Positions 1,285 through 16,160 of a stretch of 16,160 nt of DNA are shown one piece after another (positions within the stretch are counted from its first letter, which is position 1; each line of letters opens with the position of its first letter). Under the pieces are notes generated by a model that did no database searches, had not been told where the DNA came from, and was given only the letters and a program-made list of their open reading frames with translations. The stretch spans positions 1-16,160 of the IMG/VR virus record IMGVR_UViG_2512047041_000002, one strand, 5' to 3'. The translations under genes were made by a program, and so were the position numbers. Origin of the DNA: a virus (lineage: Duplodnaviria > Heunggongvirae > Uroviricota > Caudoviricetes).

Positions 1285-1330
1285 AGGTTGCTCCGGGCTA
1301 TGAAATAGAAAAATGAATCCGTTGAAGCCT

Positions 1331-1345
1331 GCTTTTTTATACTAA
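1331..1345. other. attL core (lambda 15-bp common core O), junction of bacterial B arm and phage P' arm
   Basis: Exact GCTTTTTTATACTAA; upstream flank gaagcct matches the attB B arm, downstream gttggcattataaaaaagcattgcttatcaatttg matches the lambda attP P' arm. Confidence 0.85.
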
Positions 1346-1425
1346 GTTGGCATTATAAAAAAGCATTGCTTATCAATTTGTTGCAACGAACAGGTCACTA
1401 TCAGTCAAAATAAAATCATTATTTG
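1346..1425. promoter_or_regulatory. attL P' arm with IHF H' site and Int arm-type sites P'1-P'3
   Basis: IHF-like tATCAAtttgTTG at 1371..1383; tandem arm-type-like decamers caGGTCACTAT (1391..1401), CAGTCAAAAT (1402..1411), AAAATCATTA (1412..1421) close to consensus C/AAGTCACTAT. Confidence 0.7.
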
Positions 1426-2489
1426 ATTTCAATTTTGTCCCACTCCCTGCCTCTGTCATCACGATACTGTGATGCCATGGTGTCCGACTTATGCCCGAGA
1501 AGATGTTGAGCAAACTTATCGCTTATCTGCTTCTCATAGAGTCTTGCAGACAAACTGCGCAACTCGTGAAAGGTAGGCGGATCCCCTTCGAAGGAAAGAC
1601 CTGATGCTTTTCGTGCGCGCATAAAATACCTTGATACTGTGCCGGATGAAAGCGGTTCACGACGAGTAGATGCAATTATGGTTTCTCCGCCAAGAATCTC
1701 TTTGCATTTATCAAGTGTTTCCTTCATTGATATCCCGAGAGCATCAACATGCAATGCTGTTGGGATGGCAATTTTTACGCCTGTTTTGCTTTGCTCGACA
1801 TAAAGATATCCATCTACGATATCAGACCACTTCATTTCGCATAAATCACCAACTCGCTGCCCGGTAACAACAGCCAGTTCCATTGCAAGTCTAAGCCAAC
1901 ATGGTGATGATTCTGCTGCTTGATAAATTTTCAGGTATTCGTCAGCCGTAAGTCTTGATCTCCTTACCTCTGATTTTGCTGCGCGAGTGGCAGCGACCGG
2001 GTTTGTTGTTATATGGCCTTCAGCTATTGCCTCTCGGAATGCATCGCTCAGTGTTGATCTGATTAACTTGGCTGACGCCGCCTTGCCCTCGTCTATGTAT
2101 CCATTGAGCATTGCTGCAATTTCTTTTGTGGTGATGTCTTCAAGTGGAGCATCAGTCAGACCCCTCCTTATTGCTTTAATTTTGCTCATGTAATTTATGA
2201 GTGTCTTCTGCTTGATTCCTCTGTTGGCGAGAATTTTTTCGTAGCGATCAAGCCATGAATGTAACGTAACAGAATTATCACTGTTGATTCTCGCTGTCAG
2301 AGGCTTGTGTTTGTGTCCTGAAAATAACTCAATGTTGGCCTGTATAGCCTCAGTGATTGCTATCCTCCTGTCTCGGCCTAATCCAAACTCTTTACCCGTC
2401 CTTGGGTCCCTGTAGCAGTAATATCCATTGTTTCTTATATAAAGATTAGGGGGTAAATCCCGGCGCTCATGACTTCGCCTTCTTCCCAT
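1419..2489 (-). CDS. int: Tyrosine integrase, lambda Int (356 aa)
   Basis: Translation MGRRRSHERRDLPPNLYIRNNGYYCYRDPRTGKEF... ends ...QYRDDRGREWDKIEIK, which I recognise as lambda Int with only a few substitutions; located next to attL and overlapping xis as in lambda. Confidence 0.95.
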   Translation of the reverse strand: MGRRRSHERRDLPPNLYIRNNGYYCYRDPRTGKEFGLGRDRRIAITEAIQANIELFSGHKHKPLTARINSDNSVTLHSWLDRYEKILANRGIKQKTLINYMSKIKAIRRGLTDAPLEDITTKEIAAMLNGYIDEGKAASAKLIRSTLSDAFREAIAEGHITTNPVAATRAAKSEVRRSRLTADEYLKIYQAAESSPCWLRLAMELAVVTGQRVGDLCEMKWSDIVDGYLYVEQSKTGVKIAIPTALHVDALGISMKETLDKCKEILGGETIIASTRREPLSSGTVSRYFMRARKASGLSFEGDPPTFHELRSLSARLYEKQISDKFAQHLLGHKSDTMASQYRDDRGREWDKIEIK

Positions 2490-2685
2490 TTCTGATCCTC
2501 TTCAAAAGGCTACCTGTTACTGGTCGATTTAAGTCAACCTTTACCGCTGATTCGTGGAACAGATACTCTCTTCCATCCTTAACCGGAGGAGGGAATATCC
2601 TGCATTCGCGCACCCATCGACGAACTGTTTCAAGGCTTCTTGGGCGTCGCTGGCGTGCGTTCCACTCCTGAAGTGTCAAGTACAT
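2467..2685 (-). CDS. xis: Excisionase Xis (72 aa)
   Basis: Internal ATG at 2683..2685 gives MYLTLQEWNARQRRPRSLETVRRWVRECRIFPPPVKDGREYLFHESAVKVDLNRPVTGSLLKRIRNGKKAKS, matching lambda Xis as I recall it; the 102-aa ORF in the track is an upstream extension. Confidence 0.92.
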   Translation of the reverse strand: MYLTLQEWNARQRRPRSLETVRRWVRECRIFPPPVKDGREYLFHESAVKVDLNRPVTGSLLKRIRNGKKAKS

Positions 2686-2802
2686 CGCAAAGTCTCCGCA
2701 ATTACACGCAAGAAAAAGCCGCATTGATGCGGCGATGGTAGGTCTGGATATCATTGAGCAATGAACAGGCCTCATCGAGTGTGAGGCGGTGTTATTTCAT
2801 GG

Positions 2803-3147
2803 TTAGTCCTTGCGTAGCTCGCTGATTCTTCTGTAAGTCTCTGGTGCTTTGTTTCCGTGTATCTTCATTTCAAACTTCAACAGAGCAACGAGAGAATCCC
2901 ATTCGTTGAGGATGCCTTTGAATGCCGGAACGCGCTTTGCAACCTTGTCGAATGAATCTCTGATTTCTGGAATCTGCTCAACAAGTGCAACGCATCGCCG
3001 GAAGTCTGCTGCGTCATGTGGAGCGCCGAAGTGATGACCATAGATATTTTTTTTCAGTCCACATGCGATTGAGGCAAGAGTTGCGCTACTGATGCCGACA
3101 TCGCCAGTTGATTGCCATTTCAAAACCTTCATAGCCAAATCTGACAT
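2803..3147 (-). CDS. Hypothetical phage early-left protein (114 aa)
   Basis: ATG at 3145..3147 preceded by GGAGA Shine-Dalgarno; ORF MSDLAMKVLKWQSTGDVG...; no motif recognised. Track start at 3174 lacks an RBS. Confidence 0.6.
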   Translation of the reverse strand: MSDLAMKVLKWQSTGDVGISSATLASIACGLKKNIYGHHFGAPHDAADFRRCVALVEQIPEIRDSFDKVAKRVPAFKGILNEWDSLVALLKFEMKIHGNKAPETYRRISELRKD

Positions 3148-3173
3148 TTCTTGTCTCCAATAAAAAACCGCCA

Positions 3174-3341
3174 TCAGGCGTCTTGGTGTTCTTTCAGTTC
3201 TTCAATTCGAATATTGGTTACGTCTGCATGCGCTATCTGCGCCCATATCATCCAGTGGTTATAGCAGTCGTTGATGTCCTCTGCTTCGATAACCCTGTCG
3301 AATGGCTCTCCATTCCATTCACCTGTGACTCGGAAGTGCAT
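3174..3341 (-). CDS. Small hypothetical protein (55 aa), not in ORF track
   Basis: Hand translation of minus strand: MHFRVTGEWNGEPFDRVIEAEDINDCYNHWMIWAQIAHADVTNIRIEELKEHQDA*; GGAG Shine-Dalgarno 7 nt upstream; hydrophilic, protein-like composition, unlike the overlapping 61-aa track ORF. Confidence 0.45.
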   Translation of the reverse strand: MHFRVTGEWNGEPFDRVIEAEDINDCYNHWMIWAQIAHADVTNIRIEELKEHQDA

Positions 3342-3441
3342 TTATCATCTCCATAAAACAAAACTCGCCGTAGCGAGTTCAGATAAAAGAAATCCCCGCG
3401 AGTGCGAGGATTGTTATTCACCTTTGACGGCAAGTTGCAGG

Positions 3442-3969
3442 TTAGCCACGGTTAACCTCCTGCGGCGGTTCTGGCAGCGGCATCCAGTGGGTTACGTCAT
3501 CCAAGATATTTCCTGATAAATATGTGAAAGCTCTATATTTTTTGTAATCAATTGGACTCATTACCCAGTTCCAATATGCTGCCACTATTTGACCTTGACT
3601 AAATGCCAGTAACATTTTGGTGTCGTCCGGCATTCGCTCACTACAGCTTATCCAACCATCCGGAGTTACCGGCACTGGCTGAGCGGTATAAAGCGGTGTT
3701 ATATCTGCCCGAAAATTACATGCTTTATGCAGCCGCACCCCCCGTTCGACTTCTGCTTTGTCAGGATACATACCAGTGAACGTGTTATATTCACGGTCAA
3801 TTTGCGTGAAGGTTACCTTCCACGCCACCGGCTCTGCCTCAAGCGATGCCAGAGCAATTCGTGCCAGTTCTTCCGCTTCTTCTGCTGGCAGTACAACGTT
3901 GCTACCAGGTCTGTATGTTTCGCGCCACTGCTTGATTGTCAGCAGTCGCTCTTTGGTAATAGTGGTCAT
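3442..3969 (-). CDS. DUF551-like phage protein (175 aa)
   Basis: C-terminal PDGWISCSERMPDD...THWMPLPEPP signature that I associate with DUF551 phage proteins; ATG overlaps upstream stop (ATGA). Confidence 0.6.
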   Translation of the reverse strand: MTTITKERLLTIKQWRETYRPGSNVVLPAEEAEELARIALASLEAEPVAWKVTFTQIDREYNTFTGMYPDKAEVERGVRLHKACNFRADITPLYTAQPVPVTPDGWISCSERMPDDTKMLLAFSQGQIVAAYWNWVMSPIDYKKYRAFTYLSGNILDDVTHWMPLPEPPQEVNRG

Positions 3970-4481
3970 GCCGCGTTTCCTTCTTTCTTATTAACAATTA
4001 CACCGTCATATATTTCATTAAGGTGCCCTCTCAACTCCATGCGCCTTAATGCAGATAACATGTAATCGCATTCAACCTGCTTATTTCCAGTAAATGGCTT
4101 ATCGTCAGGATTACCCCAACAGCAATTACCCTTGGGCCATCCATGTACTTTCCGTACTCTTCCGTTAACAACGTGAAGTAATCCCCAGCCGGGAGGTAAA
4201 TCCTCAACTGAAATAATTTCCGGCTCACTAATAAAGAATCGCCAGTCGCCCATGCCAAGTGAGGGATTTTTACGGAAACGCTTTTTTCTATCTGCCAACA
4301 AGTCAGCACGAGAACACTTCGCCTCTATCAGGCATGATGCTGAATTTCTGAATCCCATAGCATCTGGCTGTTCTCCGGTACTGGTTACAGCTATAAAGCG
4401 GTCATGAAAACAGACCTTGAACCCGTTGCGCTTAAGGAACTTGTGCGCAATCTGACAGAGTTCGCTGTGTGTTAACGCCAT
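3966..4481 (-). CDS. Putative PD-(D/E)xK nuclease-fold protein (171 aa)
   Basis: Start MALTHSELCQ at 4479..4481 with AAGGAGAG Shine-Dalgarno; motif GEQPDAMGF ... CLIEAKCS resembles the PD...(D/E)xK signature; Cys-rich C-terminal region. Fold assignment is by motif only. Confidence 0.45.
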   Translation of the reverse strand: MALTHSELCQIAHKFLKRNGFKVCFHDRFIAVTSTGEQPDAMGFRNSASCLIEAKCSRADLLADRKKRFRKNPSLGMGDWRFFISEPEIISVEDLPPGWGLLHVVNGRVRKVHGWPKGNCCWGNPDDKPFTGNKQVECDYMLSALRRMELRGHLNEIYDGVIVNKKEGNAA

Positions 4482-4482
4482 A

Positions 4483-5076
4483 TCACTCTCCTTTGATGCG
4501 AATGCCAGCGGCACGGGAATCATTCCATCGCTTTACTTCTTCACGAATTACGTCAATGCATTCTTTCGAATCCATTAGGTAATCTTCATCAAAAAGACGT
4601 TCCTGTTCGTTTTCTATCGCAACAATGATTGCTTCAACTAACTTTTGTACCTGAGAACCACTTTCTAACTCTGCTATGCGCTTACTCCCATCCGAGATAA
4701 CGCCCTCGTAATACTCACGCTGCTCGTTGAGTTTTGATTTTGCCAACTCCAGTTGTTTTGTTAGTTCCGCAATACGGCAAACATCGTTGATACGCGTTTC
4801 CTCTAATGCGTTGATCTCATCCAACAATGCCAGCGCAACATTTGGATTAAAAGCAGCAATAAATTCAGCGTTTGCATAAGCCTGAACATCTGTTTCAACC
4901 AGGCAGTTAACATGACATTCTGCAATCACGCCACCGGGTTCTCCTTTCCATTTTTGGCAAACAAAAACTCCTGTTAAATTGCCGTGCTGGTTAACAGATG
5001 TATGCCCTACGATGTAGCTCCCTTTCGTTGCCTTTTCTGCCGCATCACGCAGTGCCTGATAATTAATTTCGCTCAC
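4483..5076 (-). CDS. Ead/Ea22-like early protein (197 aa, GTG start)
   Basis: GTG at 5074..5076 with GGAGGA Shine-Dalgarno, overlapping upstream stop (GTGA); MSEIN... N-terminus and ...AGIRIKGE C-terminus resemble Ea22-family proteins as I recall them. Confidence 0.55.
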   Translation of the reverse strand: MSEINYQALRDAAEKATKGSYIVGHTSVNQHGNLTGVFVCQKWKGEPGGVIAECHVNCLVETDVQAYANAEFIAAFNPNVALALLDEINALEETRINDVCRIAELTKQLELAKSKLNEQREYYEGVISDGSKRIAELESGSQVQKLVEAIIVAIENEQERLFDEDYLMDSKECIDVIREEVKRWNDSRAAGIRIKGE

Positions 5077-5297
5077 TCTTCATCCTCCAAGTCGGCAACG
5101 GCGTCCATCACATCAGAACCGCGAATAACCTCAAAAGCACGGCAGGCCATTTGAAATACCAGTTGCTCTTGCGGGTGAGGAGACTCCCAATATTTGAAGC
5201 CTGGGCGATGCGTGTACCCCATCATTGAATAAAAATCACCAGCAAGCTTAATCGCGGCATCGACAAGCTCTCTGTTAGTCATTCTTTTTCCGCTCAC
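5073..5297 (-). CDS. Hypothetical protein (74 aa, GTG start)
   Basis: GTG at 5295..5297 preceded by AAGGAGG; translationally coupled to both neighbours (4-nt overlaps). Confidence 0.5.
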   Translation of the reverse strand: MSGKRMTNRELVDAAIKLAGDFYSMMGYTHRPGFKYWESPHPQEQLVFQMACRAFEVIRGSDVMDAVADLEDEE

Positions 5298-5713
5298 TGG
5301 TTGCCTCCTTTGCGAAGCTGGGCGGCTAACTCATCACATATGTGCGTCAAAGAACAAAGTTTGATTGATGGATGTTCGCGCATCATCTCTACTCCCTGCG
5401 CCCGCACTTCAGACAGGAAAGCATCGGTGGCTGGCATATTTCCTGTTGCCTTCATTGCCTCCAAAATAACCAGAACGCCATCTCGCCCAACCACCTCAGC
5501 GATAACCTCGGTGTTGTCGCCAACAACATCGCAGAATGCCTGAACTGCCTTACGAGCCAGCGCACTCTCCGCCGCCAGCGCCGCGCACTTGGCCTCCGCT
5601 TCAGCAAATTTACGCACCAGATATTCAGCGTTTGTTTCGTTAACCTTTAAATCGCTTGGGATGCATTTACCTTTCAGGAATCCATCCATCTCAATTAGTG
5701 ACATTTGTTTCAT
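5294..5713 (-). CDS. Hypothetical protein (139 aa)
   Basis: ATG at 5711..5713 overlaps upstream stop (ATGA); part of a chain of coupled ORFs; no motif recognised. Confidence 0.55.
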
Positions 5714-5874
5714 TTCTTCCCACTCCGCAACATCGCATTCAGATATTTGTTTTGATTCACTGACGGAAAAGAATTTCTCTTTAGCAATTCCTCTCTCGAT
5801 GGCATTGGCTTTACGCGCTGGCGAATAATCATTTCTGCCGGAAGAATGCCGGGGTTGTATGCAAGTCCTCTCAT
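5710..5874 (-). CDS. Small hypothetical protein (54 aa)
   Basis: ATG at 5872..5874 preceded by GAGGA that overlaps the TGA stop of the upstream gene; the longer 101-aa track ORF overlaps the 5885..6181 gene and lacks an RBS. Confidence 0.4.
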
Positions 5875-5884
5875 GGTAAATTCC

Positions 5885-6181
5885 TCAGTCATTACTGATA
5901 GCGCCATAGCGTGATCGATAATTACGCAGCCGCGGGTCGATATATTCAGGGAAGTGGGTATATGTGGCTTTGCGGAATGGTCGGATTGATGTTTCGTTTG
6001 TTCGGTCCTTCTCATTTTTTAACGCGAGTTGTATATCGCGTCGGTACATCCGTTCTGCTTTTGTTTCTGGTGGCAGATCGATAAACGTGTCGAAAATGTT
6101 TTTGATATTTTCCAGCACCTCCGCCTTGGAGCTACCGGAGCAATTGCGCGGGTCATCCGCACCATACAGAGGCGCTGGCAT
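5885..6181 (-). CDS. Hypothetical protein (98 aa)
   Basis: ATG at 6179..6181, weak AAGG Shine-Dalgarno; fits the operon spacing. Confidence 0.5.
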
Positions 6182-6204
6182 AATGGGAGCCTTATTTTCA
6201 GTAA

Positions 6205-6792
6205 TCAGAAAGCAGGGTAATCGTTCTTGCTGTAACCATAATCATCTGCATGATTCTGGCTTACGTTTTTAGAGCGATTGTCTTTATCTTTGAGATTGGC
6301 AACCATGTTGGCGATAGTTTCTGGTTGCTTGCCTTCTGCCTTTTCTTTAAGGGTTTGACCTGTTTGTGCAATAAACGGGATGCGTATTTCCATCTGGTAG
6401 TTGTCTGCGCCAGTCTTTTTGTTTGTGGTTAATACTTTCTGGAGCACTAACCCGATTTTCTTTCCATGAAATTCAGGTGCAACAAATTTACTGGCGGAAA
6501 CCATATGCTGCGTTAATTGTCCAATCCCGGCACACCCCATCATGGCGTGAACGACATTTGCGCCAAATTTGTTTTCCGTTCCGTCATTTTTCTGAACACA
6601 GACGCTAAGATATTGGATTTTACGTCCGTCGTCGGATTCTCCAGAAAACTCAATAAATTTGGCTCCTTTTTCTGATTGCTTTAGTTCTGCTTCAGTAATG
6701 GTAATGATATGGGCGCCAGTTTCGTTAATAAAACCACCTTGCCCTGCGGTCAGTGCTGCTTCTTCGTTATAAGTAAAAATCACGTTGCTCAT
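6205..6792 (-). CDS. Sak4-partner protein (195 aa), possibly ssDNA-binding (DUF669-like); not a canonical SSB
   Basis: Directly downstream of and overlapping (ATGA) the Sak4-like ATPase gene; Lys-rich acidic C-terminal tail ending DYPAF; the family name is from memory and uncertain. Confidence 0.5.
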   Translation of the reverse strand: MSNVIFTYNEEAALTAGQGGFINETGAHIITITEAELKQSEKGAKFIEFSGESDDGRKIQYLSVCVQKNDGTENKFGANVVHAMMGCAGIGQLTQHMVSASKFVAPEFHGKKIGLVLQKVLTTNKKTGADNYQMEIRIPFIAQTGQTLKEKAEGKQPETIANMVANLKDKDNRSKNVSQNHADDYGYSKNDYPAF

Positions 6793-7469
6793 GCGGCGTT
6801 TTCCTTAATTTGATGAACATTATTGATGCCGTAGTAATCACAAACAGTGGCATCGACGAAAGAGAGATCGTTATCAATCTCATTGGAATCAAACATTCCC
6901 ATTGGGGATTTGACAGTGTCTGCACCGTTGTTTTTCGTGGTGAAAAAGAACTGGTCATCGCGGGTAAGAGTGCGAAGAACTATAGTAAACATGCCTTCGA
7001 CAGTGATTTTCTCGTCCAGCATTTTGCCGATAGTTTTCATTTTCACGCGCCCCATAGGGGTTTCTTCGGTATGTGCAAGAAAATAGACTCTCAGGTCATC
7101 AGGTGCATCCTGTGCAGCCTTAATCACCTCCCATGCGTGGCGGCCTATCTCAGTAAATTTATCAAACGATTTTTCTTCTGAGCGGCGCATAAACTCATTG
7201 CTCATCACATACTGGAAGTCATCAACAATAACGATTCTTTTTCCGTATTCGTGAGCACGCTTAATTACAGCAACTATTACGTCCCATTTGTCAGTGGTAA
7301 CTACGGTTCCTTTTTTTGCTCTGGCATCCCATGCAAGCCAGTCTTTTGATTTAAATGGTAGCGGCTTGCCTATTGGTTTTATAAGTATTGCTTCCTCTGG
7401 ATTGATATTTCTCATGCTGGTTGATTTTCCGGTGCCAGATTCACCGAGTATTAATGTCGCAGTTCCCAT
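6789..7469 (-). CDS. Sak4-type RecA-like core ATPase (226 aa), phage recombination/annealing protein
   Basis: Walker A GESGTGKST near N-terminus, Walker B-like RIVIVDDF, and a size typical of Sak4; occupies the position of lambda Red genes. Confidence 0.7.
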   Translation of the reverse strand: MGTATLILGESGTGKSTSMRNINPEEAILIKPIGKPLPFKSKDWLAWDARAKKGTVVTTDKWDVIVAVIKRAHEYGKRIVIVDDFQYVMSNEFMRRSEEKSFDKFTEIGRHAWEVIKAAQDAPDDLRVYFLAHTEETPMGRVKMKTIGKMLDEKITVEGMFTIVLRTLTRDDQFFFTTKNNGADTVKSPMGMFDSNEIDNDLSFVDATVCDYYGINNVHQIKENAA

Positions 7470-7477
7470 AATTTGCC

Positions 7478-7666
7478 TCAGAATGGTAATTCGGATGGGC
7501 AGGAAAGAAATTCGCGCTCATTCATGCGCTCTCTTTGCGCCTGCCATAAACAAAGTTGTTTCTTTGATTTATCTCCCGCTTTACGCCAGTAACGAGCCTC
7601 AGCAATGTGATATTCTCTTTTTAATCGACTTAACTCTGGAGTTTTCGCCAGTTCTACCGGAATCAT
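7478..7666 (-). CDS. Hypothetical protein (62 aa)
   Basis: ATG at 7664..7666 with GGAGG Shine-Dalgarno, overlapping the Kil-like stop (ATGA); basic, Arg/Lys-rich. Confidence 0.5.
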   Translation of the reverse strand: MIPVELAKTPELSRLKREYHIAEARYWRKAGDKSKKQLCLWQAQRERMNEREFLSCPSELPF

Positions 7667-7776
7667 TTTGACCTCCATTTTCTGTAGGCTTCTACGGCTT
7701 CACGAAACATCTTTTCATCGCCAATAAAAGTGGCGATAGTGAATTTAGTCTGGATAGCCATAAGTGTTTTATCCAT
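7663..7776 (-). CDS. Kil-like small protein (37 aa)
   Basis: MDKTLMAIQTKFTIATFIGDEKMFREAVEAYRKWRSK resembles lambda Kil as I recall it; position immediately downstream of cIII, overlapping its 3' end, matches lambda gene order. Confidence 0.5.
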   Translation of the reverse strand: MDKTLMAIQTKFTIATFIGDEKMFREAVEAYRKWRSK

Positions 7777-7909
7777 TTTTGGGAACTCCTGGCTGATTAA
7801 GTATGTCGATAAGGCGTTTCCATCCATCACGTAATTTACGTGTGATTCGTTCAAGTAAAGATTCGGAAGGGCAGCCAGCAACAGGCCACCCTGCAATGGC
7901 ATATTGCAT
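7769..7909 (-). CDS. cIII: CIII (46 aa; shorter than the 54-aa lambda protein)
   Basis: ATG at 7907..7909 with AGGAG Shine-Dalgarno; MQYAIAGWPVAGCPSESLLERITRKLRDGWKRLIDILNQPGVPKNG* matches lambda CIII as I recall it up to PKNG, then stops. Confidence 0.85.
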   Translation of the reverse strand: MQYAIAGWPVAGCPSESLLERITRKLRDGWKRLIDILNQPGVPKNG

Positions 7910-7970
7910 GGTGTGCTCCTTATTTATACATAACGAAAAACGCCTCGAGTGAAGCGTTATTGGTATGCAT

Positions 7971-7996
7971 ATAAAAAGGCCCTCACACTGGAGGGC
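7971..7996 (-). terminator. Intrinsic terminator-like hairpin upstream of cIII (tL1-like position)
   Basis: On the minus strand GCCCTC-cagtgt-GAGGGC (6-bp GC stem) followed by CTTTTTAT. Confidence 0.5.
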
Positions 7997-8261
7997 AAAG
8001 AAGATTTCCAATAATCAGAACAAGTCGGCTCCTGTTTAGTTACGAGCGACATTGCTCCGTGTATTCACTCGTTGGAATGAATACACAGTGCTTCTCTGTG
8101 CTAAATAATTAAATCATATTCTGATTTGGTTAGTTTATACGCACCTCCTCTGGTGTAATATGCAAATCTGTCTTTGCTTCCATCAGAATTGTATACCCAC
8201 CCACCAAATGGAAAGATAGTGAACCGCCCCGGGTTTCCTGGAGAGTGTTTTATCTGTGAAC

Positions 8262-9152
8262 TCAGGCTGCCAGATCATCGTTTCCGATGGAAGCATAATA
8301 AGCTTTTTCTGCTTCTGCCGGAGGAGTATGGCCCAGCCTTTCCAGCAATCGTCGATTGTTATACCAGTCCACCCACGTGAGTGTGGCCAGTTCCACTTCT
8401 GCACGGTTTTTCCAGCTCTTACGGTGTATTACCTCCGCTTTGTAAAGACCATTGATGCTCTCCGCCATCGCGTTGTCATACGAGTCGCCTGTACTTCCTG
8501 TTGATGCCAGTAATCCGGCTTCCTTAAGCCGCTGTGTGTAGGCCAGCGATACATACTGAGAACCTTTATCACTGTGATGGACCGTGCCGGACGGTCGACG
8601 GGCCCATAACGCCTGCTCCAGTGCATCCAGCACGAATGTCGTTTCCATGGACGATGAGACCCGCCACCCCACGATGTATCCGGCAAACACATCAATGATG
8701 AACGCCACATAGACGAAGCCCCGCCATGTGCTGACGTAAGTAAAATCAGCCACCCACAGCTGGTCAGGTCGTTCTGCCACGAACTGACGGTTTACGCGGT
8801 CGCCTGCGGCAACGGCTTTCCGGCTGATGGTCGTACGGACCTTTTTACCCCGGAGAACACCGGCAAGTCCCATAACCGCCATGAGACGTGCCACAGTGCA
8901 TCTGGCCACTCTGATACCTTCCCGTAACAACTGACGCCAGACTTTACGCACACCGTATACCTTGTGATTTTCATCGTATACGCGCTGTATCTCTTTCTTC
9001 AGCCAGTCATCGCGCTGCGCACGGGCACTGCGTTTATCCGGATGATGTCGCTGTTGCTGACAGTGGTAATACGTTGACGGGGCAATATGCAGTTCGCTGC
9101 ATAGCGGTCCGACCCCGTACTGCTCACGCAGCTTATCCAGCAGTGGCATCAT
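8262..9152 (-). CDS. IS629-like transposase OrfB (296 aa, DDE catalytic domain)
   Basis: IS3-family OrfB-like sequence (…[31 protein letters not shown]…[11 protein letters not shown]…) in the -1 frame relative to orfA. Confidence 0.85.
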
Positions 9153-9475
9153 TTTTTCCAGAGGCGGTCGAACTCCGCCTTCGCAAAATAAGCGGAAGCC
9201 TGGCGAAGGATATCGTTACTGCGGCGCAGTTCACGATTTTCACGTTCCAGCTCTTTCAGACGCTGACGTTCAGCGGTGGTGAGCCCTCCATCACCGCCCC
9301 CGGTATCCCGCTCATGCTGGCGAACCCAGACACGCAGAGTCTCCGGCGTACAGCCAATCTTTGGAGCAATGGAACAAATTGTCGCCCATTGTGAGTCATA
9401 TTCGCCCTGACTTTCCAGAACCATACGGACTGCCCGTTGACGGACTTCGGGGGAAAAACGAGTATTTTTAGTCAT
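9149..9475 (-). CDS. IS629-like transposase OrfA (108 aa, HTH)
   Basis: [30 protein letters not shown]... with C-terminal leucine-zipper-like region; ends in an A6 run (GGAAAAAATGA) at the orfA/orfB overlap. Confidence 0.85.
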
Positions 9476-9622
9476 CCTGTTTACCTCTTTCTCAGGAAGT
9501 TTAGTCTCCAGGATTCCCGGGGCGGTTCATCTCCAGAACTTGGCAGGATTACAAGTTCATACGGAGAACTTGCACGAGCAGCAACAAAGCCACTTCGATA
9601 TGTTGAACAGACAGGGCGATCT

Positions 9623-10030
9623 ATGCCAGCCATTAGCACTCTTGAGAATGGCCTTCATCCAGTTTTAGAGAGCGCATTGTCTGGCGCTTTTAGAACTACT
9701 GGCACTATCGCAGGGTTCTCTGGAGGAGGCGTTATTGGAGCAATAGCGGGTGGCGCTGCAGGTGGGGCAATTGATGCAATGGCAAAAGGAGCGATAGCGA
9801 AATTATCCGCAACTAGAAGCGGTCGTTACGCTATTGAAAAGGCTGTTCAAGAGGCAACAAAGGCAGTTAAGGTTGGGGCAAGTGATGGCGCATTAGCGGC
9901 GGCGGAACGCAGATTTATGGCAAATAAGGCCGCCGTAAAAGCAATACGCGAGGCACTAGGAAACGAAGAGTTCCAGCGTTTAGCAAGAGCTGGAATTGTG
10001 GCATCGCTAAGCGGAATGGCACAGGAGTAA
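9623..10030 (+). CDS. Glycine-zipper protein (135 aa), possible membrane-active/bacteriocin-like; 5' end may be truncated by the IS
   Basis: TIAGFSGGGVIGAIAGGAAGGAIDAMAKGAI GxxxG-repeat segment followed by Ala/Lys-rich amphipathic helices; weak RBS at the first ATG and the frame stays open back to the IS boundary. Confidence 0.4.
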   Translation: MPAISTLENGLHPVLESALSGAFRTTGTIAGFSGGGVIGAIAGGAAGGAIDAMAKGAIAKLSATRSGRYAIEKAVQEATKAVKVGASDGALAAAERRFMANKAAVKAIREALGNEEFQRLARAGIVASLSGMAQE

Positions 10031-10360
10031 TTAGTCATCCATGGATGGATTGAGCTTATCTCGTGTTGATGTGGCAATTTTCCCAACATTTTTCAACCAA
10101 GATTTTAAGAAGGATATGTCGTCCTTAATATCATGAATATCCTCATTCTTTATACGATCAACCTTATCCTCTAAGCTCTCTATAGAACGCTCAATGCTAG
10201 ACAGAGAGATTTTTAAGTCCCCTTGCTCACGTTCCAGTGAGGATTTGAGAGCACAATATTCGTTTTCTAGAATTCCTATTTTTTTTGTTAGAGAGTGCAT
10301 TCGATACTCATACACCAAACCAGAAACGACTAATGCAGCCAACAGAAACCATTCAAGCAC
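10031..10360 (-). CDS. Membrane-anchored coiled-coil protein (about 110 aa, GTG start)
   Basis: GTG at 10358..10360 preceded by AAGGAGG; N-terminal hydrophobic helix LEWFLLAALVVSGLVYEY followed by heptad-like SLEREQGDLKISLSSIERSIESLEDKVDRIK; stop abuts the convergent glycine-zipper stop (TAATTA). Confidence 0.5.
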   Translation of the reverse strand: MLEWFLLAALVVSGLVYEYRMHSLTKKIGILENEYCALKSSLEREQGDLKISLSSIERSIESLEDKVDRIKNEDIHDIKDDISFLKSWLKNVGKIATSTRDKLNPSMDD

Positions 10361-10390
10361 ACCAACCTCCTTAGTTTTGAGCAGGATACC

Positions 10391-10756
10391 ATGAAAAAAG
10401 TTAACATTGGAAACGTACCAAAGATGCTCGTTCCGCTCTTTGAGAGCGGTACAATTGTGTGTTGTAGAGACTTTCCAGAATGGCAACGCCTGCATCAAAA
10501 ACTTGGCGTTGACGTGCAGGACTCGGATGCCAACGGAGCGTCTCATACAATGAGCAGCGAGAATGGTGTTTTGCATGTGATAGGTGTGTTCAATGGCAAA
10601 CTATCTACTATTGCCCATGAGTGCGCTCACATGGCATTCGATATCTGCTCAAGGGTCGGTGTTGATGTTGAACCAGGAAGAGCCAATGAGACTTACTGCT
10701 ACTTAATGAGCAGGCTTGTTGAGTTCTGCGAGCGACATATCAAAAAGCCGGAGTGA
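10391..10756 (+). CDS. Small HExxH-motif protein (121 aa), possible ImmA/IrrE-like metallopeptidase-fold protein
   Basis: ATG at 10391 with AGGA 4 nt upstream; motif TIAHECAHMAFD (HExxH) in the C-terminal half; two Cys pairs. Assignment by motif only. Confidence 0.45.
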   Translation: MKKVNIGNVPKMLVPLFESGTIVCCRDFPEWQRLHQKLGVDVQDSDANGASHTMSSENGVLHVIGVFNGKLSTIAHECAHMAFDICSRVGVDVEPGRANETYCYLMSRLVEFCERHIKKPE

Positions 10757-10764
10757 CCCGGCTT
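10745..10764. terminator. Stem-loop between convergent genes (possible bidirectional terminator)
   Basis: AAGCCGG-agtgac-CCGGCTT overlapping the HExxH gene stop; flanked by A-run on one side and T-rich sequence on the other. Confidence 0.3.
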
Positions 10765-10769
10765 GATTA

Positions 10770-10949
10770 TTACTTTTTGCTGTCTGGAGTTCGCTTATCC
10801 AATACCCAGCCATGACCTGGCTTTGTTGTTGGTGGAAGCCTTTCGTTGTCCTTGACGGTGGCAAAATTGTCTTTCTTACCGCCGCGTGGGCCAACTTCTT
10901 GGTATATTCCGCCGTTTTTTCCTGTGTTTTCACCTGGTTTTTTCGCCAT
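10770..10949 (-). CDS. Small Gly/Lys-rich hydrophilic protein (59 aa)
   Basis: ATG at 10947..10949 with GAGGT Shine-Dalgarno; MAKKPGENTGKNGGIYQEVGPRGGKKDNFATVKDNERLPPTTKPGHGWVLDKRTPDSKK; TTGACT -35-like hexamer upstream. Confidence 0.5.
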   Translation of the reverse strand: MAKKPGENTGKNGGIYQEVGPRGGKKDNFATVKDNERLPPTTKPGHGWVLDKRTPDSKK

Positions 10950-11039
10950 GATATACCTCAACATGCACCCGTTATTGGGCGATTAAATATTGATCTCATT
11001 TTATGAGTAGTCAATATGGTCCAAAAAAGGTAAAAATTA

Positions 11040-11064
11040 ACCCACCGTCAGGTGGGTTTTTTAT
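11040..11064. terminator. Intrinsic terminator hairpin, likely bidirectional; ends the Mnt-like/ClpP-like operon
   Basis: ACCCACC-gtca-GGTGGGT followed by TTTTTTAT on the plus strand and by TTAATTTTTACC on the minus strand; 24 nt beyond the ClpP-like stop. Confidence 0.6.
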
Positions 11065-11087
11065 AAGGAGTAATCATGATTTACCCA

Positions 11088-11624
11088 TCAAACAACCCAC
11101 CAGTTTGCCTGATTGGATGCCAGCCTTGCAGTTTTTATGGAATTAATTATGCCATGCTCAAGAGCCTTGTTAGCATCCAAAATGGTCGAGTCTGCTATCA
11201 GGGATGCCCACCTAATATGGGTTCCGATGTCGATATTGAACGTCTCAACGAAGCGATCAAGATCGTTATCGAGGCATTTCCCGTACTCTCTCAATCTGGC
11301 ATGGTCGGCGGCTGGGGAGGCAAAGCACCATAATAGAGGATGTAACAGGAATCTTGATAATGGGTTTGCGAAACGTTCTGAGCCAGCCAGGAAAACGATA
11401 TTAGCTATGGATTCAACATTGCTTATGTTGTGAGTTCTAACGGTAACAGGGAGTGACTTAAGAAAGTTATACGCAGTAAAGCCAGCGGCAGTTTCCCCTC
11501 CCTGACTTGATATATGGATATTTAATTCAGTTGCGCCTTGAGATAATGCGGTGAGACAGTGGTTCTGAAGTTGCCCAACAGTGGCAGTGTTAACGGGGCA
11601 TAAGAAATGAATTGTGTGCAGCAT
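11088..11624 (-). CDS. ClpP-fold (S14-family-like) serine peptidase homologue (178 aa), non-structural context
   Basis: By-eye alignment to E. coli ClpP blocks: ISSQGGETAAGFTAYNFL vs INSPGGVITAGMSIYDTM; ESIANIVFLAGSERFANPLSRFLLHP vs [29 protein letters not shown] (Ser and His aligned); C-terminal ALEHGIINSI vs AVEYGLVDSIL. Start ATG overlaps the Mnt-like stop (TAATG). Confidence 0.6.
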   Translation of the reverse strand: MLHTIHFLCPVNTATVGQLQNHCLTALSQGATELNIHISSQGGETAAGFTAYNFLKSLPVTVRTHNISNVESIANIVFLAGSERFANPLSRFLLHPLLWCFASPAADHARLREYGKCLDNDLDRFVETFNIDIGTHIRWASLIADSTILDANKALEHGIINSIKTARLASNQANWWVV

Positions 11625-11872
11625 TATTTTTCATCCTTAGCATACATGGTCTTTAGCGTCTCAAGTAGCGCCTCTTTGAATTTATCAGCTTCTTGGTTAG
11701 CGAATCCTTCAAGTGAGCGAGAGCCATCAAGATTATCAACATGTTTTTGAAGGATAAGCACGATCTCTGAGTTCATTGATCTGCCGTTTTTATCCGCTTC
11801 TTGCTGAATGCGTTTCTTTAAATAGTCTGGAATCCTAATCCCCAATGGACTGATATCTCTTGCACCTTTCAT
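11624..11872 (-). CDS. Mnt-like ribbon-helix-helix repressor (82 aa)
   Basis: ATG at 11870..11872 with GAGGAG Shine-Dalgarno; MKGARDISPLGIRIPDYLKKRIQQEADKNGRSMNSEIV... shows the RHH pattern of P22 Mnt (NGRSMNSE) plus a C-terminal extension; divergent from the Arc-like gene. Confidence 0.75.
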   Translation of the reverse strand: MKGARDISPLGIRIPDYLKKRIQQEADKNGRSMNSEIVLILQKHVDNLDGSRSLEGFANQEADKFKEALLETLKTMYAKDEK

Positions 11873-11894
11873 TTCTCCTCCTGCACGCTGTGCG

Positions 11895-11967
11895 TAGCTA
11901 CACAGTGTAGGCAAAAAATTTTTGACTTTAAATAAACACGGTGTAGTATTTAGTTATCACGGTGTAG
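11895..11967. promoter_or_regulatory. immI divergent promoter/operator region
   Basis: Perfect palindrome CTACAC-A-GTGTAG (11898..11910); two direct copies of CACGGTGTAG (11937..11946, 11958..11967) 21 bp apart; TTGACT (11922..11927) with TAGTAT 16 bp downstream as a candidate rightward promoter overlapping the repeats. Confidence 0.55.
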
Positions 11968-11981
11968 CAAGTGAGGTGGAA

Positions 11982-12122
11982 ATGAAAGTTAGAGACATCG
12001 CTCCATTAGGGATTCGTATCCCGCCAGAGATTAAAGAAAAATTGAAGGAAAAGGCTAAGGAGGAGGGCAGGTCTTTAAATTCAGAAATAGTGAAGCGTCT
12101 TATTCGCAGCCTAAAAAGTTGA
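11982..12122 (+). CDS. Arc-like ribbon-helix-helix repressor (46 aa)
   Basis: ATG at 11982 with GAGGTGG Shine-Dalgarno; [46 protein letters not shown]; the RHH strand [11 protein letters not shown] is nearly identical to the Mnt-like protein; the 66-aa track ORF is an upstream extension. Confidence 0.7.
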
Positions 12123-12170
12123 AGCCCCAACTGCTGGAACAGTCGGGGCTTCGGTATCAACAAATCAGAT
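12113..12170 (-). ncRNA. Candidate sar-like antisense RNA opposing the antirepressor RBS (hypothetical)
   Basis: Minus-strand TTGACT (reverse complement of 12200..12205) and AATAAT (12175..12180) with a 19-bp spacer; downstream a 12-bp imperfect hairpin (12121..12152) followed on the minus strand by AACTTTTTAG. Confidence 0.25.
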
Positions 12171-12183
12171 AGGAATTATTGAT

Positions 12184-13113
12184 ATGACAAGTTTAGCAAA
12201 GTCAACATTAAATTGCACTAACAGCATCACCATTTCAGACGTCAAGATTCATATGGATTCAGAGGGGCGTTACTCGCTTAATGACCTGCACAAGGCATCA
12301 GGTAAAGAGCGTCGTCATGAGCCTGCGGCGTGGCTGCGACTCGAACAAACCAATGAGTTAGTTCAAGAAATTCTAAATACACAGATGTGTGTATTTAAAA
12401 ATGGCGATAACTTTAATTCTTCAGAATCGCAGATTAAGAAGCCAATGGACTCTAAGAAGGGTCGCTACGGAGGCACCTACGTGTGCAAGGAGCTTGTTTA
12501 CTCCTACGCCATGTGGATTAGCGCAGCCTTTGCGCTGAAGGTTATCCGTGCATATGACGCAATGGTTACTGCCACACAAGAGAGGAAAGCTATTGGCGGT
12601 AAAACTTCAGTAGCTGAACGCACACCGCTACGAGATGCAGTAAACATGCTGGTAGGAAAGAAAGGACTTCGCTATGACGATGCATACAATATGGTTCATC
12701 AGCGTTTTGGTATTGACAGCATTGATGAACTTTCAATTGAACAAATCCCGCTGGCCGTAGAGTACATCCACAGGGTAGTGCTTGAAGGTGAGTTCATCGG
12801 CAAACAAGAGAAGAAAACCAACGAGCTTTCTGCAAAAGAAGCAAACAGCCTTGTATGGTTATGGGATTATGCCAACCGCTCACAGGCATTATTCCGCGAA
12901 CTGTATCCGGCATTAAAACAAATTCAATCGAACTATTCCGGCAGATGTCATGACTGCGGTTATGAGTTCTCCCGTATTATCGATATGGCGAGAGATGTTT
13001 TAATCAACCATACACGAGATGTTGATATTAATGAGCCAGACGGACCAACGAATCTTTCCGCATGGATGAGACTTAAGAATAAAGAATTACCTCCTTCAGT
13101 ACATAACTACTGA
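12184..13113 (+). CDS. Antirepressor with N-terminal KilA-N domain (309 aa), Ant-like
   Basis: Position directly after the Arc-like gene as in P22 immI; N-terminal region ([25 protein letters not shown]...[23 protein letters not shown]) resembles KilA-N; AGGA RBS. Confidence 0.65.
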
Positions 13114-13131
13114 CAGATAACCAACGCAACG

Positions 13132-13156
13132 ACCCAGCTTCGGCTGGGTTTTTTTA
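13132..13156 (+). terminator. Rho-independent terminator after the antirepressor gene
   Basis: ACCCAGC-ttcg-GCTGGGT followed by TTTTTTTAT, 19 nt after the stop codon. Confidence 0.7.
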
Positions 13157-13213
13157 TGCCCAAAATTCACCGTAGCCATGCTGCGGCGATTCCTTGTGTC
13201 TGGAGCAAATTAA

Positions 13214-15130
13214 ATGAGAGACATTACAGCCAATGTGATCGTATCGATGCCTTCGCAACTCTTCACTATGGCGCGTTCTTTTAAAGCCGTAGCTAATGGC
13301 AAAATTTATATCGGTAAAATTGACACTGATCCTGTAAATCCAGAAAACCAGATTCAGGTCTATGTGGAGAATGAAGACGGTTCTCACGTTCCTGTTTCGC
13401 AACCAATAATCATTAACGCTGCTGGATATCCTGTATATAACGGACAGATTGCCAAATTCGTTACCGTGCAAGGCCATTCTATGGCTGTTTATGATGCGTA
13501 TGGTGCGCAGCAGTTCTATTTTCCTAATGTGCTGAAGTATGACCCTGATCAACTACGGCAGCAATTAGAAGACCCAGATGGAGCGAATAAATACCCAAAA
13601 CTTCAGATAGCAAGATGGAGAGACAGTTATGATGTAAGAGGTTGGGGGGCTATTGGTGATGGTGTTCATGATGATACATCAGCTCTATCAGAATTACTTT
13701 CTGTTGCAACAGGTGGTGAAAAGATAGATGGGCGAGGGCTTACTTTTAAAGTATCAACTCTTCCAGATGTCAGTCGATTTAAAAATGCTCGTTTTTTATT
13801 TGAGAGAATACCGGGTCAGCCTCTTTTTTATGCTTCTGAAGATTTTATCCAGGGAGAGTTATTTAAAATTACAGATACACCGTGGTACAACGCCTGGACG
13901 CAGGATAAAATGTTTGTATATGACAATGTCATCTATGCGCCTTTTATGGCTGGAGACCGCCATGGTGTAAATAACCTCCATGTTGCATGGGTTCGCTCAG
14001 GAGATGACGGGAAGACCTGGACAACGCCGGAATGGCTTACAGATTTACATGAAAACTATCCCACAGTTAACTATCACTGCATGAGTATGGGGGTTGTCAG
14101 AAATCGCCTTTTTGCTGTAATTGAGACGCGGACCGTGAGAGGAAATAAACTGCAGGTTGCAGAGTTGTGGGATCGCCCAATGAGTCGCAGCCTTCGCGTT
14201 TATGGTGGTATAACGAAAGCAGCAAATCAGCAAGTCGCTTATATTCGCATTACTGATCACGGATTATTTGCTGGTGATTTTGTCAACTTCTCAAACTCTG
14301 GTGTTACAGATGTTACCGGGAATATGACGGTGACTACTGTTATTGATAAAAATACCTTTACAGTTACGACGCAAAATACCCAGGATGTGGATCAGAATAA
14401 CGAGGGTAGATACTGGAGTTTTGGCACATCATTTCACTCGTCACCATGGAGAAAAACCAGTCTTGGAACTATTCCTTCTTTTGTTGACGGAAGCACTCCT
14501 GTTACTGAGATTCACAGTTTTGCGACGATTAGCGATAACAGTTTTGCTGTTGGCTACCATAATGGTGATATTGGTCCACGCGAGCTTGGGATACTCTATT
14601 TCTCTGATGCTTTCGGTTCTCCTGGTAGCTTTGTTCGCAGACGCATACCTGCAGAATATGAGGCGAATGCATCTGAGCCATGTGTAAAATATTATGATGG
14701 CATTCTGTATCTGACGACCAGGGGGACATTAAGTACTCAACCCGGTAGTTCATTGCACAGAAGCTCTGATTTAGGTACATCATGGAATTCTCTTCGCTTC
14801 CCAAATAATGTTCATCACTCAAACCTTCCTTTTGCCAAAGTTGGCGATGAGCTGGTTATTTTTGGCAGTGAGCGCGCATTTGGTGAGTGGGAAGGAGGAG
14901 AACCTGATAACCGTTATGCAGGAAATTATCCAAGAACATTTATGACCAGAGTTAACGTCAATGAGTGGAGTCTGGATAATGTAGAGTGGGTTAATGTTAC
15001 TGATCAGATTTATCAGGGCGGAATAGTTAACTCTGCGGTTGGTGTTGGTTCAGTTTGTATCAAAGACAACTGGCTGTACTACATTTTCGGTGGGGAAGAC
15101 TTTTCTAAACCCATGGAGCATAGGGGATAA
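13214..15130 (+). CDS. Tailspike: P22-like head-binding N-terminal domain plus glycosidase-type receptor-binding domain with Asp-box (BNR) motifs; likely the 5' part of a frameshifted longer gene
   Basis: First ~115 aa ([11 protein letters not shown]...[38 protein letters not shown]...[15 protein letters not shown]...NVLKYDPDQ) closely resemble the P22 gp9 N-terminus as I recall it; [14 protein letters not shown] motif; two Asp-boxes SGDDGKTW and SSDLGTSW. Confidence 0.8.
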
Positions 15131-16160
15131 CAACAGAAAATATCCTTATGTTCACGATGGTCACCCGGCTGATTTGTATTGTTTCAGGGTGAAAATTAAA
15201 CAGGAAGAATTTGTTTCAAGGGATTTTGTCTACGGAGCCACTCCTAACAGAACGCTTCCTACTTTTATGTCGACGTCAGGCGTGAGGACGGTTCCTGTAC
15301 CCGTTGATTTCACAGATGATGTTGCCGTCCAGTCACTGACTGTCCATGCAGGTACATCAGGACAAGTTCGCGCGGAAGTCAAACTTGAGGGTAATTACGC
15401 CATTATTGCGAAGAAAGTACCGTCTGATGATGTTACCGCTCAGAGATTAATCGTTAGCGGCGGTGAAACAACGTCTTCAGCAGATGGTGCAATGATAACG
15501 TTGCATGGTTCCAGAAGCAGTACTCCACGTCGCGCGGTATATAACGCACTCGAACATCTTTTTGAGAACGGAGATGTTAAACCTTATCTTGATAATGTAA
15601 ATGCTCTTGGTGGTCCGGGAAACAGGTTCTCGATAGTTTATCTTGGCTCCAATCCTGTGGTTACCAGTGACGGAACATTAAAGACAGAGCCGGTCTCTCC
15701 TGACGAAGCATTGCTGGATGCCTGGGGTGACGTCAGGTATATCGCTTATAAATGGCTGAACGCTGTCGCTATAAAGGGGGAAGAAGGGGCGAGGATACAT
15801 CATGGTGTAATCGCGCAGCAACTTCGTGATGTTCTTATTTCTCACGGACTCATGGAAGAAGAAAGCACAACATGCCGCTATGCCTTTCTTTGCTATGACG
15901 ATTATCCCGCAGTATATGATGACGTCATTACTGGCCAAAGGGAAATGCCGCTGACTGATAATGACGGGAGCATCATTGTTGATGAGGATGATAATCCAGT
16001 GATGGTAATAGAAGACATCATTGAGCGCGTTGAAATAACGCCAGCAGGATCTAGATGGGGGGTCAGACCTGATCTCTTATTCTATATCGAGGCAGCATGG
16101 CAGCGCAGAGAAATGGATAAGATAAAAGCTAGGTTAGACTTAATAGAAGGGAAGCACTAA
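15039..16160 (+). CDS. Tailspike C-terminal region with S74-type intramolecular chaperone domain signature; probably continues 13214..15130 in another frame
   Basis: Frame open from 15027, overlapping the end of the upstream ORF; contains TSDGTLK (Ser-x4-Lys spacing as I recall for the autocleavage site of such domains) and [11 protein letters not shown] motif; track start is a TTG with no RBS, so an independent start is doubtful. Confidence 0.55.

Follow-up and report, generated by a model that had tools for sequence, protein, structure and literature searches.

CUS-3, a K1-specific P22-like prophage of Escherichia coli RS218 (CP000711), the Lederbergvirus HK620 (NC_002730) and phage lambda (NC_001416) are the described systems with which we compare a prophage found at the lambda attachment site, attλ. 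The prophage lies in a stretch of 16,160 nucleotides (nt), positions 1 to 16,160 of the IMG/VR virus record IMGVR_UViG_2512047041_000002, which as a whole we call the window. The window is E. coli chromosome. The prophage in it is very probably a defective remnant, about 16 kb long, of a K1-capsule-specific P22-like element of the CUS-3/HK620 kind that has been gutted by an insertion sequence (IS), and we consider it highly likely that the window covers the left three quarters of this defective prophage, which sits between ybhC and ybhB.

CUS-3 shares with the element in the window the tailspike and the ant-tailspike layout, and neuO, which lies downstream in the sister locus of strain N32. 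However, CUS-3 has a different integrase of its own (1158 nt; 385 amino acids, aa), and argW is mentioned in the literature on CUS-3, whereas the window has lambda int-xis-attP at ybhC/ybhB. The two also diverge (36-61% aa identity) in their mnt/arc alleles, hkcB and gp16, CUS-3 is without the ClpP-like gene, and compared with CUS-3 the copy in the window is a deleted and frameshifted remnant. HK620 resembles the element in the order hkaI-abc2-SSB(hkaK)-Sak4(hkaL)-hkaM-kil-cIII, at 97-99.6% aa identity except for abc2 at 67%, and in the C-terminus of gp16, hkcB, hkcC and hkcD (93-99%) and the head-binding domain of the tailspike (92.6%). It differs in its IntS-type integrase, in retaining only remnants of mnt/ant, in its O18A1-type tailspike and in being a complete phage. 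Lambda shares with the element the identical core, the P' arm, int and xis (97.9% nt identity), orf55 (92.7%) and kil/cIII with the thermoregulator RNA, but the window is without exo/bet/gam and ea10, the P arm in the sister loci is about 86% identical to that of lambda, and the rest of the element is P22-like.

Lambda integration cassettes on non-lambda virions are already known. In HK97, the annotated att core is identical to that of lambda, and this phage represents lambda int on another non-lambda virion type; phages 434, HK106 and O276 also bear the lambda att-int-xis cassette. Among podoviruses, the cassette is present at 98-99% identity in JEP4 (MT740315) and Huey (PQ850609), both Lederbergvirus, and in vB_EcoP-720R6, a podovirus by its EcoP name. 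JEP4, Huey, φHS3 and a prophage of strain STEC383 share with the element in the window a lambda-type int-xis-attP (98-99% nt), P22-type virion genes and a site beside ybhC, and JEP4 and the STEC383 prophage share the Sak4-SSB-abc2 module as well. These four are complete genomes with other tailspike specificities, whereas the element in the window is IS-gutted and has a K1 endosialidase tailspike. For the P22-like φHS3, integration upstream of ybhC has been shown by lysogen sequencing (2026 preprint). The window adds no new kind of element; its configuration is already known and is found here in a degraded state. A first-pass annotation of the window had concluded that the lambda Int/attλ system is borne by non-lambda virion types, which is true as a general statement, but it was already documented and the window demonstrates it poorly.

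Gene content and internal deletion

The closest public sequence to the window is the chromosome of N32, a cerebrospinal fluid isolate, with 100% identity over positions 1-2356 and 99.99% over 2351-14409. What the window retains of virion genes is a frameshifted tailspike gene and 166 codons of gene 16. Of the virion set of a functional P22-like (Lederbergvirus) prophage, the terminase, portal, scaffold, coat, gp4/10/26 and gp7/20 genes are absent from the window, which holds no head or packaging genes at all. These genes are likewise absent from the whole attL-attR interval of N32, while they are present in the intact STEC383 prophage that served as comparator. An immC repressor and cro, N, and replication and lysis genes are also missing from the window, where the early-left operon halts at 8219, before ral/N, and an IS comes next. 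Still intact are int/xis, the HK620-type Sak4-SSB-Abc2 module, kil/cIII and the immI region with mnt, a ClpP-like gene, arc, sar and ant. Judged by this gene content, the remnant is predicted to be unable to replicate, lyse the host or assemble virions.

The element that interrupts the prophage is an IS3-family member of the IS629/IS1203 group. Its terminal inverted repeats are TGAACCGCCCCGGG..TCCTGGAGA (IS3-type, TGA...), it shares 99.6% identity with an annotated IS629, and it contains the ALIL frameshift pseudoknot (Rfam, 120 bits), the programmed -1 frameshift signal of the group. The bases flanking it are TAG and TCT, i.e., there is no target-site duplication of the 3-4 bp that a simple insertion would leave, and this absence suggests an associated deletion or recombination between IS copies. 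The homologue of P22 gene 16 that starts directly to the right of the IS does so in the middle of the gene: the fragment is 100% identical to residues 546-711 of gp16 from strain AR_0017 and 92.8% identical to residues 557-722 of HK620 gp16. Since the IS has no duplication and gene 16 starts mid-gene beside it, the IS marks an internal deletion. A simple insertion of the IS is ruled out by the missing duplication, and also by the intact relatives, in none of which gene 16 lies next to the ral-proximal intergenic DNA.

The extent of the deletion can be estimated from such relatives. The intact P22-like prophage of STEC383 occupies the same ybhC/ybhB site with the same int and Sak4 module, and in it the points equivalent to window positions 8108 and 9530 are 27.7 kb apart. 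This prophage has the full P22-type terminase, portal, scaffold, coat and gp4/10/26/14/7/20/16 set together with a head-binding tailspike. The corresponding points in HK620 lie about 26.6 kb apart. By this comparison, roughly 26-28 kb appears to be missing from the remnant, and with it N, the immC repressor region, the replication genes, nin, Q, the lysis genes, the terminase, portal, scaffold and coat genes and most of the tail and ejection genes. The prophage DNA outside the IS amounts to about 15 kb, and the lost DNA would bring it to about 42 kb, which is a normal size for a P22-like genome.

Both IS junctions were found in one of 5426 complete E. coli genomes, that of N32, so the deletion is recent and lineage-specific and not a recurrent module boundary. 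The modules of the window stand side by side through decay and do not represent a new phage design. A literature search for a CUS-3-type prophage at attλ, or for its decay through IS, returned nothing specific.

Integration at attλ

The left attachment site reads GCCT-GCTTTTTTATACTAA-GTTGGCATTA over positions 1327-1355, where GCTTTTTTATACTAA is the 15-bp core, and continues as GTTGGCATTA...AGGTCACTATCAGTCAAAATAAAATCATT. It has the structure BOP' of an attL, with the bacterial B arm to the left of the core and the lambda P' arm to the right, and the arm-type sites P'1-P'3 (AGGTCACTAT, CAGTCAAAAT and AAAATCATT) lie at about 1388-1418. The core is exactly where homology to lambda sets in, and positions 1331-2733 are 97.9% identical at the nucleotide level to lambda 27724-29126. 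Catalysis by lambda Int depends on R212, K235, H308, R311, H333 and Y342. The four substitutions that separate the integrase in the window from lambda Int (S89N, P112T, H164P and I248V, with positions counted by hand) do not fall on any of these residues, and the catalytic domain is in this respect unchanged. By sequence, attL, Int and Xis look functional, but with pL, N and cII lost, their expression appears doubtful.

The junction of ybhC, core and P' arm is present in 1919 of the 5426 complete genomes, and occupancy of attλ by prophages with a lambda int is thus commonplace. ARAGORN found no tRNA genes in the window, which rules out tRNA-linked integration within it and is consistent with a non-tRNA attachment site. 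The right attachment site lies beyond the window. In the N32 locus, the core is followed by CTTTAGCGAAACGG, adjoining ybhB, and the P arm is 86% identical to that of lambda, which makes this a proper attR (POB').

In strain ExPEC XM, an uninterrupted phage-form junction runs from the tailspike through neuO and attP into a lambda-type int, and so a CUS-3-type phage with a lambda integration cassette exists as one genome. The homology to CUS-3 in this junction region stops about 20 bp before homology to the lambda P arm starts, indicating that the unit that was swapped is the att-int-xis cassette.

The tailspike gene

The tailspike region encodes all parts of a P22-type endosialidase tailspike, i.e., head-binding domain, endosialidase N-terminal extension, beta-propeller, beta-barrel, stalk and S74 chaperone domain. 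The corresponding Pfam matches (Head_binding, End_N_terminal, End_beta_propel, End_beta_barrel, End_tail_spike and Peptidase_S74) are spread over two reading frames. While the head-binding domain is 92.6% identical to that of HK620 gp9, the tailspike as a whole matches SiaK1 of CUS-3 with 98% aa and 99.2% nt identity and a single 1-nt insertion (TTT to TTTT). With the extra T at about 15098-15101, the reading frame runs into a stop codon ending at 15130, so that the 981-codon open reading frame (ORF) is interrupted. The region measures 2947 nt in the window against 2946 nt in CUS-3, AR_0017 and ExPEC XM, which are without the extra T. Among the best matches listed from 183 complete genomes with this tailspike, none reaches 100% identity and all stand at 99.2% over 120 of 121 bases. 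A frameshift shared with other strains is thereby ruled out among the matches listed, and the extra T is either private to the source strain or a sequencing error in a homopolymer. The tailspike stop codon is the end of the window, and the N32 locus goes on with neuO (14 AAGACTC repeats), the P arm and attR.

Feature map and comparison with the first-pass annotation

The features of the window are collected in Table 1. The first-pass annotation had recognized attL, int, xis and cIII as those of lambda, a Sak4-type ATPase with a partner in place of exo/bet/gam, an mnt/arc/ant block and the N-terminus of a gp9-like tailspike. These assignments stood when the window was compared with the lambda, P22, HK620 and CUS-3 genomes, and the module identities held: the core is exact and CIII agrees with lambda at 46 of 46 residues over its 46-aa form; the partner is an SSB and completes the HK620 pair; the block consists of two Arc-family repressors, the sar RNA and ant; and the Pfam family Head_binding covers tailspike residues 1-113 at 1.3e-66. 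The annotation had passed over the IS629-group element (8220-9529), the truncated gene 16 (9530-10030), the identity of the tailspike as an endosialidase and the frameshift at about 15098-15101. Its view of the locus as a useful case for modular exchange over-read the arrangement, as the lambda-int part and the immI/tailspike part adjoin via a deletion scar at the IS629-group element.

Table 1. Features of the 16,160-nt window, with positions counted from its first letter.
Feature	Position	Strand	Basis or remark
ybhC, host gene on the gal side of attλ	1-1284	-	annotated ybhC in N32 and many other genomes
lambda attL, 15-bp core (1331-1345) and P' arm with arm-type Int sites	1331-1418		sequence match to lambda
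int, lambda-type tyrosine integrase, intact, 356 aa	1419-2489	-	352/356 aa identical to lambda Int
xis, excisionase	2467-2685	-	98.6% identical to lambda Xis; overlaps int
accessory 'ea' genes: phrog_1229 ORF, lambda orf55 homologue (3174-3341), DUF551, phrog_9263 ORF, Ead/Ea22-like, two small ORFs, DUF2737	2803-5874	-	Pfam/PHROG
abc2, anti-RecBCD	5885-6181	-	Pfam Anti-RecBCD_p2, 2.7e-37; 67% identity to HK620 Abc2, 63% to P22 Abc2
phage SSB, cognate Sak4 partner (HK620 hkaK homologue)	6205-6792	-	phrog_743 (SSB), 1.6e-66; 97.4% identity to HK620 HkaK
Sak4 single-strand annealing ATPase (HK620 hkaL homologue)	6789-7469	-	phrog_2872, 3.9e-108; Pfam AAA_24; 99.6% identity to HK620 HkaL
hkaM homologue, kil, cIII (46-aa form)	7478-7909	-	identity to HK620: HkaM 98.4%, Kil 97.3%, CIII 97.8%
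cIII thermoregulator RNA (Lambda_thermo)	7864-7922		Rfam RF01804, 88.5 bits
remaining early-left intergenic DNA, ea10 absent	7910-8219	-	stops about 117 bp short of ral, at the IS start
IS629/IS1203-group IS3-family insertion sequence, 1310 bp	8220-9529	-	orfA 9149-9475, orfB 8262-9152
3' fragment of P22 gene 16 (DNA ejection protein) homologue	9530-10030	+	last 166/711 codons; starts directly right of the IS
hkcB (-), hkcC (+) and hkcD/orf59a (-) homologues	10031-10949		99%, 99% and 98% identical to HK620 or P22
terminator-like hairpin, bidirectional	11039-11058		at end of ClpP-like gene
ClpP-like gene, N-terminally short, 178 aa	11088-11624	-	CLP_protease, 2.2e-11; overlaps mnt-like gene
mnt-like Arc-family repressor	11624-11872	-	Pfam Arc, 6.1e-8
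arc-like gene	11982-12122	+	Pfam Arc, 4.3e-12
antisense sar RNA	12117-12182	-	Rfam RF00262, 67.6 bits against a gathering score of 43
sar terminator hairpin	12121-12152		
ant antirepressor	12184-13113	+	KilA-N and P22_AR_C domains
tailspike pseudogene: P22 head-binding domain and K1 endosialidase (CUS-3 siaK1 type)	13214-16160	+	Pfam and nt alignment

Early-left and immunity genes

The minus-strand genes at 2803-7909 form a typical lambdoid early-left operon, in which gene order and lengths from abc2 to cIII match HK620 exactly. Of the accessory genes, the orf55 homologue is 92.7% identical to that of lambda and the DUF2737 gene product 98% identical to HkaI of HK620. The Sak4 protein has the Walker A motif GESGTGKST and is a core-only RecA/Rad51-like ATPase of the Sak4 family. 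The SSB gene (6205-6792) adjoins its gene and overlaps the Sak4 stop codon. In HK620, Sak4 and its cognate SSB are a biochemically characterized pair (PMC5928155). To the right of cIII, positions 7969-8091 are 97.6% identical to lambda 33923-34045, and sequence shared with other lambdoid phages runs up to 8219. The identical sequence in strain MS 196-1 runs on into ral, about 117 bp further. The Sak4/kil/cIII early module of MS 196-1 (locus stretch 8873-12981) belongs to a lambda-like siphovirus prophage with a different integrase, adjoining torS.

The immI block is complete, with divergent Mnt-like and Arc-like ribbon-helix-helix repressors upstream of ant and the sar RNA between arc and ant. 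The Mnt and Arc alleles are themselves divergent, at 32-41% identity to P22 Mnt and Arc, and the C-terminal 170 aa of Ant are 83.5% identical to P22 Ant. The N-terminal domain of Ant is a KilA-N domain, unlike that of P22 Ant, and the PADLOC candidate family PDC-S22 matches residues 88-136 at an E-value of 6e-11.

The ClpP-like gene coupled to mnt is the only mildly unusual item in the window. It starts at the stop codon of the mnt-like gene and stops at the hairpin at 11039-11058, and from this arrangement the mnt-ClpP-like pair would be a lysogeny-expressed two-gene unit inside immI. AR_0017 and N32 have this gene, and P22, HK620 and CUS-3 lack it. By sequence, the closest solved structure to its product is PpClpP1 (PDB 9UXT; E-value 1.6e-35), and the Ser and His of the catalytic triad align by eye. 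PpClpP1 is a non-canonical ClpP with a truncated N-terminus, and it assembles with the housekeeping ClpP into hetero-tetradecamers (PMC12900304).

Between gene 16 and the ClpP-like gene, the hkcC homologue (10391-10756, plus strand; 121 aa, 99% identical to HkcC of HK620) has a HECAH motif of the HExxH-like kind, suggestive of a small metallopeptidase. The protein had no Pfam or PADLOC match and matched only phrog_1365, a family of unknown function. For defence content, PADLOC reported nothing for the ClpP-like gene, for hkcB, hkcC and hkcD or for the small early-left ORFs; its output consisted of a marginal DpdH match (E-value 0.002) and PDC-S22 on Ant.

Decay in related strains

The remnant in N32 is identical to that in the window (99.99-100% identity) and has the same two IS junctions, with four further IS insertions that make N32 a different assembly or strain. 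The RefSeq annotation of N32 already records pseudogenes and IS elements in it. The additional insertions (N32 locus stretch 7419-9802 and 20527-25466) correspond to window positions 2351-2356, 14401-14409, 14549-14551 and 14799. One is an IS629-group copy inside int. Two others interrupt the tailspike, namely an IS1 and an IS600, whose flanking alignments overlap by 9 bp and 3 bp, respectively, and resemble target duplications, and another IS629-group copy deletes the 3' end of the tailspike. Taken together, the window and N32 record step by step how one prophage was bombarded by IS elements, N32 being the next stage of decay.

In ExPEC XM (stretch 1-28064), tandem CUS-3-like prophages are joined by the attP-like tailspike-neuO-attP-int junction. 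The second copy is internally deleted, such that a 5'-truncated gene 20 comes straight after cII and a single small ORF, and this is an independent example of a similar internal loss. The heptanucleotide AAGACTC in neuO is present in 14 copies in N32 (locus position 25649 onward), 28 in XM (12083) and 19 in CUS-3 (10770), and neuO is kept in the N32 remnant despite the loss of most of the phage. A copy number not divisible by three is reported to place neuO in phase-OFF (PMC13001214). By this rule, neuO is phase-OFF in N32, XM and CUS-3 alike.

AR_0017 (stretch 7001-14537) has the same late region, 99.5% identical, in a prophage adjoining torT, which illustrates routine exchange of integration modules. 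Each half of the element in the window thus also circulates on its own, combined with other integration modules and virion types.

Discussion

From the module identities, the boundaries of the IS, the lack of a target duplication, the point of truncation and the frameshift, together with intact relatives at the same site, we infer an origin from a single prophage, the mechanism of its deletion and the order of events. The ancestor would have been a temperate P22-like podovirus (Lederbergvirus) of the CUS-3/HK620 kind, about 42 kb in size and specific for the K1 polysialic-acid capsule, and it would have borne a lambda int-xis-attP cassette instead of a tRNA-targeting integrase. Int-mediated recombination at lambda attB would have produced the canonical attL at 1331. 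Later, an IS629-group element may have entered the prophage, after which the DNA from just downstream of ral to about codon 545 of gene 16 would have been lost, either through an adjacent deletion mediated by the IS or through recombination of two IS copies. A single-base insertion would then have frameshifted the endosialidase tailspike.

Some observations weigh against this reading. The right end of the element, with neuO and attR, is outside the window and is seen only in the near-identical N32 locus. The absent target duplication fits an adjacent deletion and recombination between two IS copies alike, and fits two tandem prophages as well. The extra T of the tailspike sits in a homopolymer and is unshared by any listed genome, and could be a sequencing error.

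Of the rival explanations, only an origin from two tandem prophages keeps some probability, and that a small one. Under this explanation, two prophages with a lambda-type int, such as a lambda-like prophage with a CUS-3-like one behind it, were fused at attλ by an IS-associated deletion, and the two halves never belonged to one phage. Tandem P22-like prophages do exist at the site of this integrase, as in ExPEC XM with its internally deleted second copy, and the Sak4/kil/cIII module is also found in lambda-like siphoviruses, both prophages and phages, examples being MS 196-1 and HK629. However, a tandem origin needs a deletion of more than 60 kb compared with about 27 kb, and the best characterized match of both halves is HK620 (97-99.6% for the Sak4 module and 93-99% for the gp16 C-terminus and hkcB-D). 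Moreover, attλ can be occupied by a single intact P22-like prophage that has exactly this left end, as in STEC383.

It is very improbable that the window represents an unbroken part of a natural and potentially functional mosaic phage genome whose modules became neighbours by modular exchange. The circular or vegetative map of P22-like phages does place the tailspike next to attP-int, as in JEP4 and at the XM junction, and each module is individually intact or nearly so, but the order in the window is int to cIII, IS, gene 16 fragment to tailspike, with the tailspike at the end far from int. Only an IS without target duplication separates the early-left operon from a truncated structural gene, and all essential genes for replication, lysis, packaging and the head are missing from the window as well as from the N32 attL-attR interval.

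An assembly chimera, in which contigs were mis-joined through the multi-copy IS629 and which the first-pass annotation had itself raised, is equally improbable and we reject it: IS629-group copies are numerous (about 30 matching places in N32 and thousands of matching records) and repeats are classic points of mis-joining, but both junctions recur base for base in the separately assembled N32 chromosome, where a proper attL and a proper attR enclose the remnant and leave no space for the 27 kb that is missing.

We regard it as unlikely that the remnant is more than debris, namely a pruned, 'domesticated' prophage that is kept in a K1 meningitis-associated lineage for lysogeny-expressed cargo, i.e., the mnt-ClpP-like operon inside immI and neuO. 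If so, the ClpP-like protein might remodel the host ClpP or act in superinfection exclusion, and the cargo would include neuO, the phase-variable capsule O-acetyltransferase gene just beyond the window. The intact int, xis and attL could in that case still permit excision, or capture by a helper phage with a lambda-type Int.

The correct annotation of the locus is a defective CUS-3/HK620-like prophage remnant at attλ and not an intact or unusual phage. The locus represents textbook lambdoid mosaicism combined with IS-driven prophage decay, of which the window and N32 together offer a stepwise example, and it matters little beyond annotation. It points to an uncharacterized ClpP-like gene co-oriented with mnt in immI. 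For the CUS-3-type K1 phages, it means that they circulate with at least three integration modules or sites, namely the integrase of CUS-3 itself, the torT site of the AR_0017 prophage, and attλ.

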